NCBI GenBank assembly: GCA_030584005.1
Contig: CP129486.1
Coordinates: 435,556 to 499,555 of the forward strand
Source of the DNA: Bdellovibrionota bacterium
Lineage (GTDB): Bacteria; Bdellovibrionota_C; UBA2361; JAFLCA01
DNA length: 64,000 nucleotides
Direction: 5' to 3'
Shown here: piece by piece, positions 28,943-49,438 of the stretch
Layout: each line of letters starts with the position of its first letter
Numbering within the stretch: position 1 is the first letter of the stretch
Notes under the pieces: model-generated
The model's input: the letters and a program-made list of their open reading frames with translations, nothing else
Told to the model about the DNA's origin: nothing
Database searches by the model: none
Position numbers and translations under genes: made by a program

Positions 28943-29060
28943 AAAGTCCCAGCAACTTCCTACTTTCGCGGGAAATCCCACTATCATCGGCTCTAGAGGG
29001 CTTAACGACCGTGTTCGGTATGGGAACGGGTGTGGCCCCTCCGAAATAATCACCAGGGCT
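28943..29060 (-). rRNA. rrf: 5S ribosomal RNA
   Basis: reverse complement reads GCCCTGGTGATTATTTCGGAGGGGCCACACCCGTTCCCATACCGAACACGG...GGGAC, canonical 5S. Confidence 0.9.
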
Positions 29061-29797
29061 TAAAGATCCAATAAATCTCTAAGCTCTAGCGACATCCCGC
29101 TGGCACTATTCAGGCCACACATAGAGCGCATGTGAAATCTTGGCGCTAGCCAAGTTTCACAAGCAAGCATGCTTGGCCCCTCCGAAATAATCACCAAGGC
29201 TCAAAAGTCTATTTCAACTTTAAGCTTTGAGGATCCATCGCGGAGTTCTAAAAACAGAAACTGGATTTCATGCGAGCAAAGTACAGCACTGGCCAAACTT
29301 TGCTCGCAGAAATCGTGGTAACTCCAGATTCCTGGAGTACCTCACACCAGAACTTCAGTCCTGGCGATCAACTAATCGTCATTATCGAGCGCGATTCGTA
29401 AAATAAAAATCTACGTTTCGCAGATATTGCACATCTCGGTGCTTACCCCTCGTTTCAGCAATCATTGATAGATCAAGCACGATCTAAAAAATGTCGCGTA
29501 AACCATTGGTAAAAAAAGCATTGTAGCGTCGGTGGTCTGAATTAATCAGACAACAAGCTACCTACCTTGAATTACGCAATCTCTCCACGTGCAAGCACGC
29601 TCTTGAGAAAGCGCTTCCGCGTAATTCAAATCTTGGTTTTGCCAAGTTTGAATTGCTAGAAACAAGGAGGAATTAAGAAAATTTAAGCCGATCGGCAAAT
29701 TAGTACTGGTTAGCTCCATACATTACTGTACTTCCACACCCAGCCTATCAACGTTGTAGTCTACAACATGCCTTAAGGGAGATCTTATCTTGGAGGC

Positions 29798-29830
<33 letters not shown>

Positions 29831-29946
29831 GTTCCGGACATAGCTACCCAGCTGTGCCACTGGCGTGACAACTGGTGCACCATAGGTCCGTTCACTTCGG
29901 CCCTCTCGTACTAGAAGTAACTCTCCTCAAATCTCCTACGGCCACG

Positions 29947-30005
<59 letters not shown>

Positions 30006-30036
30006 TGGCGAACAGCCAAACCCTTGGGACCTACTC

Positions 30037-30091
<55 letters not shown>

Positions 30092-30108
30092 GACTCGTGG
30101 GGGAGATA

Positions 30109-30147
<39 letters not shown>

Positions 30148-30303
30148 CGACCCTTCCATACAGGATCGCCGGATCACTAAGGCCTACTTTCGTACCTGTT
30201 CGAGATGTCCCTCTCACAGTCAAGCAAGTTTATGCCTTTACACTCGACGCGTGGTTTCCAAGCACGCTGAACTTGCCATTGCGCGCCTCCGGTACTCTTT
30301 GGG

Positions 30304-31394
30304 CAACTATGTTTTTCTCCTGCGTGGCACTTTGTAAAGAAAAGATGGCAGTATGAACGGCTCTACAAGAGCTTGGAATTGTTCATACGATCGCCCAGAT
30401 ATATATATTTGGACTCCGTCTTTTTGATGACGCTCCTTGCAAATGAGCTTGAACTTTGTCTCCAGCGTTCGAATAGCGATCGCTATACTTTGTGCGTCGT
30501 AACCCTGTGTATTTAGTATGACGGTCTTTGAGTCCTTCGATTTGAGTGACCCATCATCCATATACCAGTACGCCAGAGCCCGTGGTGTTAACCATCGGTG
30601 TAGCAGTTTTGGAATCGACTTGTGTCGGCCCTTATAAAACTGCTGCGCATAAAAGCGGAAAGCTGCATGGCTATAAGTTTGAAACGTTAAGTTTGTGGAC
30701 TTACTGCCAGTACTGCTTTGTACTATTCGCTCGCGAGGGGGAGTTCTTACCCACTCCTTGAAAAGCTCATAGAGGTGATTCACGTAATCGGCATGAGCTG
30801 CCGACTGTTCTACCTTCACTCGAAAGATGTTTCCGCCTGGCCGACGCTCCAGATGGGCGTCACCGAGGAGAATTCCGACGAGTGTTTCGTGCTGAATCTC
30901 AGAGATTCGCAACGATCTTTTGAGCTCTTCAATTTGTTTTGAGCGCATCGATTAAAGTGCCGCGAGAGTTCTGACTAATAATGTCAGCTTTCAGTCGCCT
31001 GAAAGTTCAGACTGTATCACTCTCCAATGGTACTACTGTATACCATGGAGACTTGGCGTTCAGTCGTTGAGGGGAAATCGAAGCGCAACTTGAATCTTGC
31101 TCCGAAGTCTTCCCTGCTGATTGTCCGCACCAGTGCATTTTCACTGAATCATTTTTTAACCTTCCGAATCGTGGTGTTACCAGGTTCGGATAGTTGCTGA
31201 TTCAGTAGCACATGGATTCTAACCCTTTTTCAACCGAAGCAAGAGTGAGCTTCGATGATGAAGAGACGGAGTTTCCAGCATACAGCCAAATTTGCCTTAC
31301 ACGTTACCGTGTAAGCGCCCCTAATTTCATTCCACAGGTCATTTGATCTATGGAAAGTCAATTTATCAGGCGCGATAAATTGCTTATGCGGTCG
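30304..31394 (-). other. group-I-type intron in 23S rRNA at approx. E. coli position 2262 (beside P-loop)
   Basis: exon reads ...GGGGCGGTCGCCT | intron | CCCAAAGAGTACCGGAGG; upstream exon ends in U, intron ends in G; exon between the two introns is exactly 331 nt = E. coli 1932..2262. Confidence 0.75.
30307..30948 (-). CDS. double-motif LAGLIDADG homing endonuclease encoded in the 23S intron
   Basis: 213 aa; motifs LVGILLGDAHL and LAYWYMDDGSLK; stop codon 3 nt before the intron 3-prime end. Confidence 0.8.
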   Translation of the reverse strand: MRSKQIEELKRSLRISEIQHETLVGILLGDAHLERRPGGNIFRVKVEQSAAHADYVNHLYELFKEWVRTPPRERIVQSSTGSKSTNLTFQTYSHAAFRFYAQQFYKGRHKSIPKLLHRWLTPRALAYWYMDDGSLKSKDSKTVILNTQGYDAQSIAIAIRTLETKFKLICKERHQKDGVQIYISGRSYEQFQALVEPFILPSFLYKVPRRRKT

Positions 31395-31678
31395 AGGCGA
31401 CCGCCCCAGTCAAACTACCCACCACGCGCTGTCTTGGATGAGGATTACTCATCTCAGTTAGAGGTCAGAAACTGTAAGGGTGGTATTTCAAGGTTGACTC
31501 CATTAAGGCTAGCGCCCTAACTTCAAAGTCTCCCACCTATCCTACACATACAATTCCCGACATCAACGCGAAGGTATAGTAAAGGTGCACGGGGTCTTTT
31601 CGTCCTGCCGCGGCTACCCGGCTTTTTTACCGAGATATCAATTTCACTGAGTTCGTCGTCGAGACAATGGGGATGTCG

Positions 31679-31725
<47 letters not shown>

Positions 31726-32356
31726 CAGATCTCCTAATTTGTTTCCAATTTAGCTGGACTTTCTCTTTGCAATCCGCGGTTCATCTTTATTGCTATGGAG
31801 CGAATTTCTTCAATTCCATTTTTTCTTAAATGAACCCCACCTTCCATCAATAAGAGCACTGACTTGAATAATTCAAAATCAAGCTTCTTTTTTGATTGAA
31901 GTGGATGCTTACTGAAGAACGGGATAATTATTTCACGTAGGTGTTCTAATTTTCGAACTCGATAGGCTAGACGGTCTCCGTGATTCACCCGAACCACGCC
32001 ACAACCGAAAAAGCTTTTCAAGGCTTCTAATAATTGAACGTCTCGTTTGTGTTGGACGACTGTGAATTCAGGCAAGACCTGAACACCCAGCGTCATTTCC
32101 TTATGAGTATTAATACCCACATGGAAACAACCTTCTCCATCTACAAATCCTACAACCCAATCTGCATTAAGATTCATGGGACGCACCAAACGTAAAGTCT
32201 CTGAGGGTTCCCGGAACGACCCGGGCCTTCCCTGCTGATTGCCTCCCTGTCTGTTGGATTTTCACTGCCAGAACAAGTTCTGGCGAGTACCATACAGTTT
32301 TTGAAGGGTTTCCAGCATATGGTTTAGTTTTACTAAGGCTAGCGATTCTATCTTTA
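31726..32356 (-). other. group-I-type intron in 23S rRNA at E. coli position 1931
   Basis: exon ...CGGTCCTAAGGT | intron (631 nt, ends in G) | AGCGAAATTCCTTGTCGGG. Confidence 0.8.
31734..32189 (-). CDS. single-motif LAGLIDADG homing endonuclease (I-CreI-like size class) encoded in the 23S intron
   Basis: 151 aa; WVVGFVDGEGCF motif; stop 8 nt before intron 3-prime end. Confidence 0.8.
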   Translation of the reverse strand: MVRPMNLNADWVVGFVDGEGCFHVGINTHKEMTLGVQVLPEFTVVQHKRDVQLLEALKSFFGCGVVRVNHGDRLAYRVRKLEHLREIIIPFFSKHPLQSKKKLDFELFKSVLLLMEGGVHLRKNGIEEIRSIAIKMNRGLQRESPAKLETN

Positions 32357-32401
<45 letters not shown>

Positions 32402-32485
32402 GCTCATCGCTTCGCGTAAAGCTAACGATTCACCTTAACCTTCCGGCACCGGGCAGGCGTCAGACCCTATACTTCCTCTTACGAG

Positions 32486-32519
<34 letters not shown>

Positions 32520-34074
32520 AACCCCCTGCTCTCTGCAACCCTCAATAGCTTCAAAAAGTAAATTCTTTAACTATCGAAGGCCCACCTTCTCCCGAAGTTA
32601 CGGTGGCAGTGTGTTGAGTTCCTTGACGACGATTCTCTCAAGCGCTTTAGTATACTCTACTCGCCCACCTGTGTCGGTTTACGGTACGGGCAGTGCTGTA
32701 CTCACTTAGAGGCTTTTCTTGGAAGTGTGGGATCAATCAGTTCGCTCCGGGTTTCCCCTTTGCTCCCCATTACCTCTCGGAATATGCCAGAGCGGATTTG
32801 CCTACTCCAGCTTCCTACGGGCTTAGACCGCGAACCAACATGCGGCTGATCTACCCTCCTTCGTCCCCTCATCGCTAAAACGTACAACGCTGGCACGGGA
32901 ATATTAACCCGTTTTCCATCGACTACGCCTTTCGGCCTCGCCTTAGGACCCGGCTTACCCTGGTAGGATTACCCTAGCCCAGGAACCCTTGGGCTCACAG
33001 CGGAAGAGTTTTTCACTCTTCTTATCGTTACTCATACCGGCATACTCACTTGTCTGAACTCCACGCGTCCTTACGGTCACGCTTCAATGCACAGACAACG
33101 CTCCTCTACCGCTCCTCAGGTCCGAAGACCTGTTAAACCCGTAGCTTCGGTACAATGCTTAGCCCCGTTAAATTTTCCGCGCAGGAAAGCTTGACTAGTG
33201 AGCTGTTACGCTTTCTTTAAAGGATGGCTGCTTCTAAGCCAACCTCCTAGTTGGCTTAGCTCTCCCACAACGTTTGCCACTTAGCATTGATTTTGGGACC
33301 TTAGCTGACGGTCTGGGATCTTTCCCTCTCGCGAACGGACCTTATCACCCGCCCACTGACTCCCGGATTCTGACTCTAACGGTATTCGGAGACTATCTGG
33401 ATTTGGTAGACTGGTAGGTCCCCTAGTCCAATCAGTGCTCTACCCCCGTTAGATATATTGTCCGAGGCTATACCTAAATATATTTCGAGGAGAACCAGCT
33501 ATCACCCGGCTTGTTTAGCCTTTCACTCCTACTCACAGCTCATCCGAGAAATTTTAAACTTTCACCGGTTCGGTCCTCCGCCAGGTGTTACCCTGGTTTC
33601 AACCTGTCCATGAGTAGATCGCACGGGTTTCGGGTCTACTCCGTGTAACTAGACGCCCTTTTAAGACTCGCTTTCGCTACGGCTACGCCTCACGGCTTAA
33701 CCTAACGCTACACAGAAGTAACTCGCCGGCTCATGATGCAAAAGGTACGCGGTCGCACGTTAAGTCCGAAGACTTCATAGTGCTTCCACTGCTTGTAGAT
33801 GTACGGTTTCAGGTCTATTTCACTCCCCTTTAGGGGCGCTTTTCACCTTTCCCTCACGGAACTAGTTCACTATCGGTCAGTAACGAGTATTTAGCCTTGG
33901 ATAATGGTCCACCCAGATTCCCACAAGATTCCTAGTGTCTCGTGGTACTCAGGAACGTACTCACAGCCTTTGTCGGTTTCGCTTACAGGGGTTTCACCTT
34001 CTGTGCCCTAGCTTTCCAACTAAGTTCAACTACCCACTCGGGTCTGCTTTATTGTACGCCCTACAACCCTCGAC

Positions 34075-34262
34075 GAGCATTTATGCTCGTCGAGCACGCC
34101 GGAGGCGATATGAAATACGCGTAGCGTAGTTCACGTCGCGGAGGCGGGCTCTCCTATGCATAAATGTTTCAGTCAACCTTCGCTTGCTCGCGCAAGCTCC
34201 GGCCGATCTCCTCGCATTTATGTTCGCTTCGAACATAAATGCTCGTCGAGTTTAGGCTCTTC
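34075..34262 (-). other. extra ~185-nt hairpin-rich insertion in 23S domain I (approx. E. coli position 270); candidate intervening sequence / expansion segment
   Basis: ends CTCGACGAGCATTTATG ... CATAAATGCTCGTCGAG are long inverted repeats; internal hairpins; absent from E. coli alignment. Confidence 0.5.
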
Positions 34263-34798
34263 CCTTTTCGCTCGCACTACTGGGGGAATCTCTTTTGATT
34301 TCTCTTCCTGCAGGTACTAAGATTTTTCAATTCCCTGCGTTGGCTTCCTTTCGGATGGTCATAAAGACCAGGTTTCCCTATTCAGAAATCTCCGGGTCAA
34401 AGTTTATTCGGCAACTCACCGGAGCTTATCGCAGCCATATCACGTCTTTCTTCGCCTGTTACTGCCGAGGCATCCACCGTACACCCTTAGTAGCTTAAAT
34501 ATTTCTTAATATCTGTCGCTACCGATTGATGTGCTTTCTATTCTACTACCGCAGAGCTTGCGCCCTGCGAGTCAATTCCGCCTCGTGGAAGTTTTTTGCG
34601 CGTCCACGAAGTTATCTCCAACAGGTGACACTTCACATGCTGAAGAACAAAAATTGACAAATCGCGCTCGAGAATGACGACTCAGTCAACTTATTCGTCT
34701 ACCCATATTCAATTGTAATCGCGACCTACTACTGCTCGGTCGCAAGCGGCCTTTTATGTTAGCCGCAAACAAATCTTCGACTCGTTGCCTGTGTTGAG

Positions 34799-34932
34799 CG
34801 TAATTGGAATCTTGGCAGAGCCAAGTTCCAATAGCTAACTCCCGGCGTAATTGGAATCTTGGCAGAGCCAAGTTCCAATAGCTAACTCCCGCTGTAATTG
34901 GAATCTTGGCAGAGCCAAGTTCCGATAGCTGG
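34799..34932. repeat. 3 x ~46-nt tandem repeat in the 16S-23S spacer, each unit with hairpin GGAATCTTGGCAGAGCCAAGTTCC
   Basis: GTAATTGGAATCTTGGCAGAGCCAAGTTCCAATAGCTAACTCCCG repeated three times (third unit diverged). Confidence 0.8.
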
Positions 34933-35347
34933 AAATGCCGCAACGGTCATCGATAGAAGCTGGTTTTGCTCAAGCGTAGCAGGATAGCGTGCTGTAACTA
35001 TCACCGTGTTTCCACAGTGAATCATCCAGCGTAATCAAAATATTGGCACGCCTACGTTTCGTAGAAACTACGGCGCGTAGACTCCGCCAATTTTTGATAG
35101 CTAAAAAACTGAGCTCAGGGAGTAATACTATCTTCGTCATGTAAGCGTCTTGCGACGCTATCTCGTAAAAGGTGGATCTTACCTGAGGATCCGAGATTGT
35201 TTGTCGTTTCCGTTTCGTCCAACAGAAGCAAAAAGCTCTGTCTTTCTAACGGTATCCTGATTCATGTCCAGCTTTGCTGTTTATGAATCCAATCCATTCT
35301 GAAGCCCGATGTTGATCTTTCGATCGCACGGAACTTGAGGACTCCTT

Positions 35348-36865
<1,518 letters not shown>

Positions 36866-49362: not shown

Positions 49363-49424
<62 letters not shown>

Positions 49425-49438
<14 letters not shown>

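Follow-up and report, generated by a model that had tools for sequence, protein, structure and literature searches.

That bacteria carry introns at position 1931 of the 23S ribosomal RNA (rRNA) gene (Escherichia coli numbering; hereafter the L1931 site) has been known since 1999. Descriptions exist of L1931 introns whose single-motif LAGLIDADG open reading frames (ORFs) enter the ribozyme core (PMC1995217), and the site is the target of the chloroplast homing endonuclease I-CpaI (PMC6019428). The L1931 introns of Thermotoga are self-splicing according to the title of a report cited in PMC11270868, and the T. neapolitana L1931 protein is credited with maturase-like activity in work cited in PMC3984707. 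In the candidate phyla radiation (CPR), group-I-like inserts with LAGLIDADG_1 ORFs are frequent at the 23S site 23IS7, which lies at position 1931; I-ShaI, an enzyme of this CPR site class, cuts its own insertion site and homodimerises (PMC11270868). Here we describe a 64,000-nucleotide (nt) stretch from a Bdellovibrionota bacterium (contig CP129486.1, positions 435,556 to 499,555; the whole of this stretch is hereafter denoted the window) in which the 23S rRNA gene is interrupted at the same site by a 631-nt insert. We read the insert, with a probability of roughly 0.88, as a mobile group I intron of the L1931 lineage, i.e. the lineage that occupies the I-CpaI target site.

The rRNA operon lies on the minus strand of the window, with the 16S gene at 35349-36865, the 23S gene at 29679-34500 and the 5S gene at 28947-29057. 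The 23S match spans the full 2925-position large subunit (LSU) model over 4822 nt, leaving ~1.9 kb of insertions. On the minus strand the 5′ exon reads ...ACGGTCCTAAGGT (longer stretch ...AACGGUCCUAAGGU) and ends at 32357, and the 3′ exon begins at 31725 with AGCGAAATTCCTTGTCGG (longer stretch AGCGAAAUUCCUUGUCGG); the Rfam LSU model aligns straight through the site, skipping a 634-nt unaligned block. In the numbering reference, E. coli K-12 MG1655 rrlH (2904 nt), the last base of CGGTCCTAAGGT is 1931 and the first base of AGCGAAATTCC is 1932, which identifies the insertion site as L1931. This position is located just 3′ of helix 69, at the ribosomal subunit interface. The placement of the insert is unambiguous, because a shift by one base destroys the colinearity of the exons. 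The intron begins with UAAAGA and ends with GAUCUG, the preceding exon base being U and the last intron base G. An earlier reading of the same DNA, made from the letters alone (the original prediction), had proposed a 631-nt interruption at 1931 with an upstream exon ending in U and an insert ending in G; the exon reads, the LSU alignment and the rrlH numbering bear out its coordinates, and both terminal bases are seen in the sequence. Its assignment of the downstream exon to E. coli 1925-1960 was slightly off, the downstream exon corresponding to 1932 onward.

The intron and its elements, in transcript order, are as follows.

31726 to 32356, minus strand: whole group I intron, 631 nt, G+C 0.42, 3′ of E. 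coli U1931 (exon colinearity, numbering and 66 same-site homologues)
32357 to 32363, minus strand: P1 5′ strand, CUAAGGU, formed by the final 7 nt of the 5′ exon; family-wide, 96-98% of P1 cells pair
32333 to 32345, minus strand: internal guide sequence, GCCUUAG at 32333-32339 (P1) and UCGCU at 32341-32345 (P10)
32322 to 32327, minus strand: P3 5′ strand, CUAAAC (covariation and RNAalifold)
32233 to 32317, minus strand: P4-P5 domain (conserved pairing and covariation)
32312 to 32317 with 32233 to 32238, minus strand: P4, UGCUGG with UCAGCA, 100% paired
32303 to 32307 with 32242 to 32246, minus strand: P5, CCUUC with GGAGG, 96% paired
32248 to 32297, minus strand: P5a and P5b, which extend P5 and include an A-rich bulge; covariation at 6 of the 7 P5a pairs
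32205 to 32232, minus strand: P6 (GGG/CCC, 100% paired) and the P6a hairpin
32196 to 32201, minus strand: P7 5′ strand, G(A)GACU with a bulged A, part of the predicted guanosine-binding helix, 99.4-99.7% paired
32186 to 32191, minus strand: P3 3′ strand, GUUUGG (covariation and RNAalifold)
32179 to 32185, minus strand: P8 5′ strand, UGCGUCC, ending 1 base ahead of the ATG
31734 to 32177, minus strand: homing-endonuclease ORF in the P8 loop, 147 amino acids from the ATG at 32177, stop UAG at 31734-31736 (Pfam and PDB matches)
31768 to 31775, minus strand: P8 3′ strand, GGAUUGCA, inside the ORF and coding for part of ...NRGLQ...
31761 to 31767, minus strand: J8/7, AAGAGAA (family norm AAGAUAA)
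31756 to 31760, minus strand: P7 3′ strand, AGUCC, inside the ORF
31734 to 31755, minus strand: P9.0 5′ strand (AG, 31754-31755) and the P9 hairpin (31734-31753) with a GAAA tetraloop (covariation)
31726 to 31728, minus strand: P9.0 3′ strand (CU), followed at 31726 by omega-G, the guanosine that closes the intron at the 3′ splice site (family end-G and covariation)
31721 to 31725, minus strand: P10 partner, AGCGA, the first 5 nt of the 3′ exon, E. coli 1932-1936

The assignment to group I rests on comparison with homologues. With the ORF as query, a pattern-limited scan of one genome per bacterial or archaeal species matched 72 loci in species-level genomes from more than 10 phyla (Gamma- and Alphaproteobacteria, Acidobacteriota, Chloroflexota, Chlamydiota, Patescibacteria, Omnitrophota, Planctomycetota, Cyanobacteriota, Zixibacteria and others). 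Both conserved exon words were found at 66 of the 72 loci, flanking a 565-749-nt insert at the identical L1931 site, and a terminal G closes 65 of these 66 introns (66 of 67 with the window copy). In metagenomes, 4269 protein relatives of the ORF were found, with a best identity of 73-75%, whilst viral contigs yielded no relative of the L1931 endonuclease. The view, expressed with the original prediction, that site 1931 is used in a few bacteria is outdated in the light of these 72 genomes and 4269 metagenome proteins, and of the reported CPR and archaeal occurrences (PMC11270868, PMC6125680).

The ribozyme parts of the 67 introns (window included, ORF interior removed) were aligned. Pairing is 100% in P3, where 5 of the 6 pairs carry compensatory changes, and likewise 100% in P4 and in P6; P7 is 99.7% paired. 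The third pair of P6 is G-C in 40 of the 67 introns and A-U in 27, in three sequences one P7 pair is C-G instead of U-A, covariation (G-C/A-U) is seen at both P9.0 pairs (93-95% paired), and P8 and P9 show covariation at all 8 family pairs each. A formal pair count was made on 35 diverse introns after removal of lineage-specific insertions, with the length-variable P6a and P5b excluded and with the 3′ partners slid by 1-3 columns as a control. In this count 92.0% of cells are paired, versus 27-48% with slid partners; P3, P4 and P6 are 100% and P7 is 99.4% paired, and double-sided changes occur at 35 of the 62 pairs. The covariation score is 0.437, compared with 0.164 for shuffled alignments, none of 500 shuffles scoring as high. 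RNAalifold, given no structure, recovered P3, P4, P5, P5a, P5b, P6, P6a, P8 and P9. We conclude that the group I core is real and is selected across the L1931 family. The proposal that the insert is a group I intron is upheld by these data: the P1 G.U pair, the P3/P7 pseudoknot, P4-P6, P8, P9.0, P9 and the terminal G could all be drawn, with covariation in 35-67 homologues.

The Rfam group I model (RF00028), suggested as a check on the original prediction, aligned to the intron over its full length (model positions 1-253), with the ORF placed as a 441-nt insertion within P8, but scored 29.9 bits (gathering score 50; E = 8.5e-5 over 5 kb), and this search is insufficient when taken alone. The P1 drawn by the RF00028 alignment, which had used rRNA helix 69 for this element, was rejected. 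Many archaeal IB4 introns occupy LSU position 1931, and RF00028 detected none of them (PMC6125680); the weak score of the window intron is explained by this failure of the general model on IB4 introns.

In the P1 helix of the window intron, CUAAGGU pairs with GCCUUAG, which places U1931 opposite G in a G.U wobble at the 5′ splice site; the guide motif CGCUAGCCUUAG is kept across the L1931 family. Covariation is impossible for this helix, because its exon strand is invariant rRNA. The P10 pairing (UCGCU/AGCGA) is 68-80% paired across the family. The spacer between P1 and P3 is only 5 nt long (UAAAA), and P2 is thus absent; with P2 missing and P5 extended, the overall structure is of an IB4 or IC1-like type, the subgroup label being taken from the literature. 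In P7 of the window the bulged nucleotide is present beside a G-C pair, and the helix is invariant or covarying in the family. P8 is formed by UGCGUCC and GGAU(U)GCA, i.e. 7 base pairs and one bulged U. The sole aligned L1931 intron with a broken P7 pair (C opposite A) is that of a Simkaniaceae metagenome-assembled genome (L067:2770-3453); it was in the Simkaniaceae, too, that an L1931 intron was published as unspliced.

The ORF was originally described as 151 codons long. This longer form, which starts from a TTG at 32189, carries WVVGFVDGEGCF and has a stop that ends at 31734, is present; an ATG at the position equivalent to 32177 is kept in homologues, however, so the product is probably the 147-amino-acid form. 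The protein contains a single LAGLIDADG copy (WVVGFVDGEG). Pfam LAGLIDADG_1 matches residues 13-111 of the 151-residue form with 92.1 bits (cutoff 23.1; E = 4.7e-26), and PDB entry 5gkk, a 170-residue single-motif enzyme, matches residues 5-142, near end-to-end (E = 1.3e-49); the ORF also matches each half of the two-domain enzymes I-PanMI, I-SmaMI and I-OnuI. The acidic motif residue is kept (the D of GFVDGEG, which we take to be the equivalent of I-CreI D20), and the ORF contains neither frameshifts nor internal stops. Exact database look-up of the 147- and 151-residue forms gave no match. A literature search found no papers naming 5gkk, which is the best match among solved structures, is rich in K, R and E and may be one of the Thermotoga L1931 enzymes. 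Three further elements of the original prediction stand: the endonuclease is of the single-motif type (by both the Pfam and the structure matches), its stop lies 8 nt ahead of the 3′ splice site (31734 versus 31726), and the ORF overlaps core helices, these being the P8 3′ strand, J8/7, the P7 3′ strand, P9.0 and P9.

Of the 124 columns with at least 90% conservation in the other 66 introns, the window copy departs at 5, and four of these five departures make up two compensatory pairs. One is a double change in P4 from G-C to U-A, which no other member of the set of 67 shares, and the other is a double change in P5 from C-G to U-A. This compensatory pattern argues for continuing selection on the fold of the window intron. 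The P4 variant (CAUAUGCUGGAAAC ... GCAAUCAGCAGG), although unique among the 67 L1931 introns, is present in exact form in 38 JGI metagenome contigs; these otherwise hardly resemble the window intron, if at all, and presumably represent unrelated group I families with a common core motif.

The fifth departure is a U to G change in J8/7 (alignment column 216), where U is found in 61 of the 66 other introns and G in 5. Within the AAGAUAA of most relatives, UAA serves as the usual stop of a 138-amino-acid ORF, ~35 nt short of the 3′ splice site. The change to G removes this UAA, with the result that the window ORF continues via the P7 3′ strand, P9.0 and P9 to the UAG in the P9 3′ strand. Six relatives have ORFs that end 3-8 nt from the 3′ splice site; extension of the ORF into the core is therefore recurrent rather than unique to the window, and is tolerated.

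These features are compatible with the following sequence of events. The intron would be transcribed inside the 23S precursor and then fold, whereupon an external guanosine bound in P7 would attack the bond 3′ of U1931, presented by the G.U pair of P1. P10, P9.0 and the terminal G would then position the 3′ splice site, such that exon ligation would yield a continuous 23S rRNA just 3′ of helix 69. Translation of the ORF would give a protein of ~17 kDa, which likely forms a homodimer, by analogy with other single-motif enzymes. The dimer is predicted to cut intron-less 23S rDNA at 1931 (CGGTCCTAAGGT|AGCGAAATTCC; surrounding target ...AACGGTCCTAAGGTAGCGAAATTCCTTGTCGG...), and repair of the break would copy the intron into the cut allele (homing). 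As insertion splits the target, the intron-bearing copy of the host would be immune. The protein may additionally aid folding of the RNA in a maturase role, as for its T. neapolitana homologue.

The same 23S gene carries further insertions, which the original prediction for L1931 leaves unmentioned and which are listed here.

30304 to 31394, minus strand: second group I intron, 1091 nt, after E. coli U2262 (hereafter L2262), just 3′ of the P-loop; RF00028 61.7 bits at 30988-31364
30307 to 30948, minus strand: L2262 ORF, 213 amino acids, LAGLIDADG_2, I-SceI-like; stops 3 nt ahead of the 3′ splice site
~34076 to 34240, minus strand: insert in 23S domain I that resembles an intervening sequence, 165 nt, at Rfam model position ~283, one long near-perfect stem

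The L2262 intron follows a U of the 5′ exon and has G as its last base, and its ORF has 485 relatives. Introns at this site occur in at least 6 other contigs (L026 and L076-L080), of which L026, L076, L077 and L078 also have an L1931 intron; a literature search found no papers naming the L2262 site. The 165-nt domain I stem has a computed energy of -94.9 kcal/mol (z-score -8.25), and on this modelling the insert looks like an RNase III-type intervening sequence. In many related loci (15 listed) further insertions are found ~13 nt upstream and ~21 nt downstream of L1931, which fit the known L1917 and L1951/1952 sites; it appears to be common for two or three introns to cluster within 35 nt of exon.

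LpxB and PheST genes adjoin the rRNA operon, and the G+C content of the host is 52-55%. No plasmid-borne 16S gene is more than 79% identical to the 16S gene of the window, and the 23S exons are ~70-81% identical to the exons of the 72 related genomes; the host is apparently a deep-branching Gram-negative lineage. The 16S-23S spacer (34501-35348; ~850 nt) has no tRNA gene, the sole tRNA of the window being at 49363-49435. Exact copies of PheT and of the L2262 endonuclease occur in the public runs SRR24881069, DRR779145 and SRR26321453 (three Logan contigs), with exact PheT only on one 5-kb Logan contig, from SRR24881069. That the L1931 ORF is missing where PheT or the L2262 ORF is recorded may stem from the shortness of the contigs or from a presence/absence polymorphism of the L1931 intron. 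A metagenome scan for an intron-less allele, using the host-specific 23S exon word AATCGTTAGCTTTACGCGAAGCGATGAGCC, gave no match.

Several observations weigh against a functional, mobile L1931 intron. Homing endonuclease genes often decay once fixed, and no clear Shine-Dalgarno sequence precedes the ATG at 32177. The intron misses the RF00028 gathering threshold (29.9 versus 50 bits), it has a G in place of the conserved J8/7 U, and, since its ORF crosses P7 and P9, translating ribosomes would unfold the core. We infer splicing of the window intron and cleavage by its protein by analogy, and the L1931 intron of Simkania negevensis has been published as unspliced in vivo. This last report, known here from its cited title (‘unspliced group I intron in 23S rRNA’; PMC11270868) and concerning the same site (PMC1995217, PMC6019428), speaks, together with the J8/7 change, for a group I intron by descent that is now retained in the mature 23S rRNA, or removed only slowly, in this host. 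We consider such retention improbable: the window copy retains intact ribozyme helices in which the changes are compensatory, a pattern unexpected for an unused fold, and the same J8/7 G is found in five relatives. On general grounds, moreover, 631 nt would be hard to tolerate beside helix 69 at the subunit interface. It is likewise doubtful, although conceivable, that the ribozyme works whilst the endonuclease is inactive, the intron being fixed and immobile and its ORF decaying or kept as a splicing helper. A model in which intron homing endonucleases are cyclically gained and lost (PMC1995217) would allow for this state, the loss of the usual stop adds a 9-residue tail, and a ribosome-binding site is not obvious. 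The ORF is nonetheless full length, aligns end-to-end with a solved homologue, keeps its catalytic motif and has no frameshift, and the six relatives with ORFs reaching to 3-8 nt from the 3′ splice site indicate that the extension is tolerated.

Misassembly is, as a matter of general experience, common at rRNA operons in metagenomes, and the exact L1931 ORF is nowhere on record, unlike the L2262 ORF and PheT of the same window. A chimeric operon that has acquired an intron-bearing fragment of another organism is nevertheless very improbable, given that the intron is identical to no relative (best protein identity 73-75%), that its P4 double change is absent from the other 66 introns, that the flanking exons are continuous with one 23S gene aligned over the full model, and that the pairing of L1931 and L2262 introns recurs in other genomes. 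We attach hardly any credence to an RNase III-type intervening sequence at L1931, which would be excised without ligation and leave a fragmented 23S rRNA. Bacterial 23S genes often carry such sequences (PMC11270868), with a probable example in domain I of this very gene, but their known sites are variable hairpin tips rather than a universally conserved stretch (PMC11270868), and the L1931 insert forms no single long stem and contains a covarying group I core together with a homing endonuclease.

The mobile group I intron thus remains our preferred assignment. Beyond it, we note as a long shot that the intron is still mobile and polymorphic in a deep-branching non-CPR host, or that the loss of the J8/7 stop couples translation to splicing. 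As a precursor under translation cannot fold its core, endonuclease synthesis could be coupled to splicing in this way; if true, this would be a regulatory twist undescribed for the L1931 family.

The locus has practical implications for annotation. Tools that expect a 23S gene of ~2.9 kb would misannotate or break one of 4.8 kb, intron ORFs are not to be counted as ordinary host genes, and the general Rfam model under-calls the L1931 lineage. With 67 same-site introns in more than 10 phyla, L1931 introns are far wider in bacteria than the older literature implies.

Among the described systems, the S. negevensis intron (U68460; 654 nt, with a 143-amino-acid single-motif ORF) shares with the window intron its site, endonuclease family, bacterial host and similar size (PMC1995217 Table 1; PMC6019428). 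Chlamydiota, Simkaniaceae included, are represented among the relatives at five loci; the window protein is 59% identical to that of the Simkaniaceae relative, whose P7 pair is broken whereas that of the window is intact. The introns of Thermotoga naphthophila, T. neapolitana and T. petrophila (698-700 nt, 162-amino-acid ORF) agree with the window in site and ORF type (PMC1995217), but their hosts are hyperthermophilic and both intron and ORF are longer, whilst the window host is Gram-negative with 52-55% G+C. Those of Synechococcus lividus C1 and Synechococcus sp. C9 (666-675 nt, 162-167 amino acids) likewise have a single-motif ORF at the same site and resemble the window intron in lacking P2, in their complex P5 and in the course of the ORF, which extends from a peripheral loop and enters the core (PMC1995217). 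The Synechococcus 23S genes also hold several endonuclease-bearing introns, although the companions there are L1917 and L2593, and in the window L2262.

The organellar L1931 introns, including that of I-CpaI, from green-algal chloroplasts and mitochondria and Acanthamoeba mitochondria, also encode single-motif LAGLIDADG proteins (PMC1995217; PMC6019428), and the site takes its name from this family; they differ in their organellar hosts, and the likeness to the window rests on description, I-CpaI not being among the solved structures. Patescibacteria are present among the relatives at six loci, but the window host is not a CPR member, as indicated by LpxB, large sensor kinases and a moderate G+C content, and I-ShaI, which is said to be nearest to I-CeuI, is perhaps not orthologous to the window protein. 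In all these respects the window intron is a typical new member of the known, widespread L1931 family; it extends the host range of these well-described selfish rRNA introns by one and leaves the known workings of the family unchanged.

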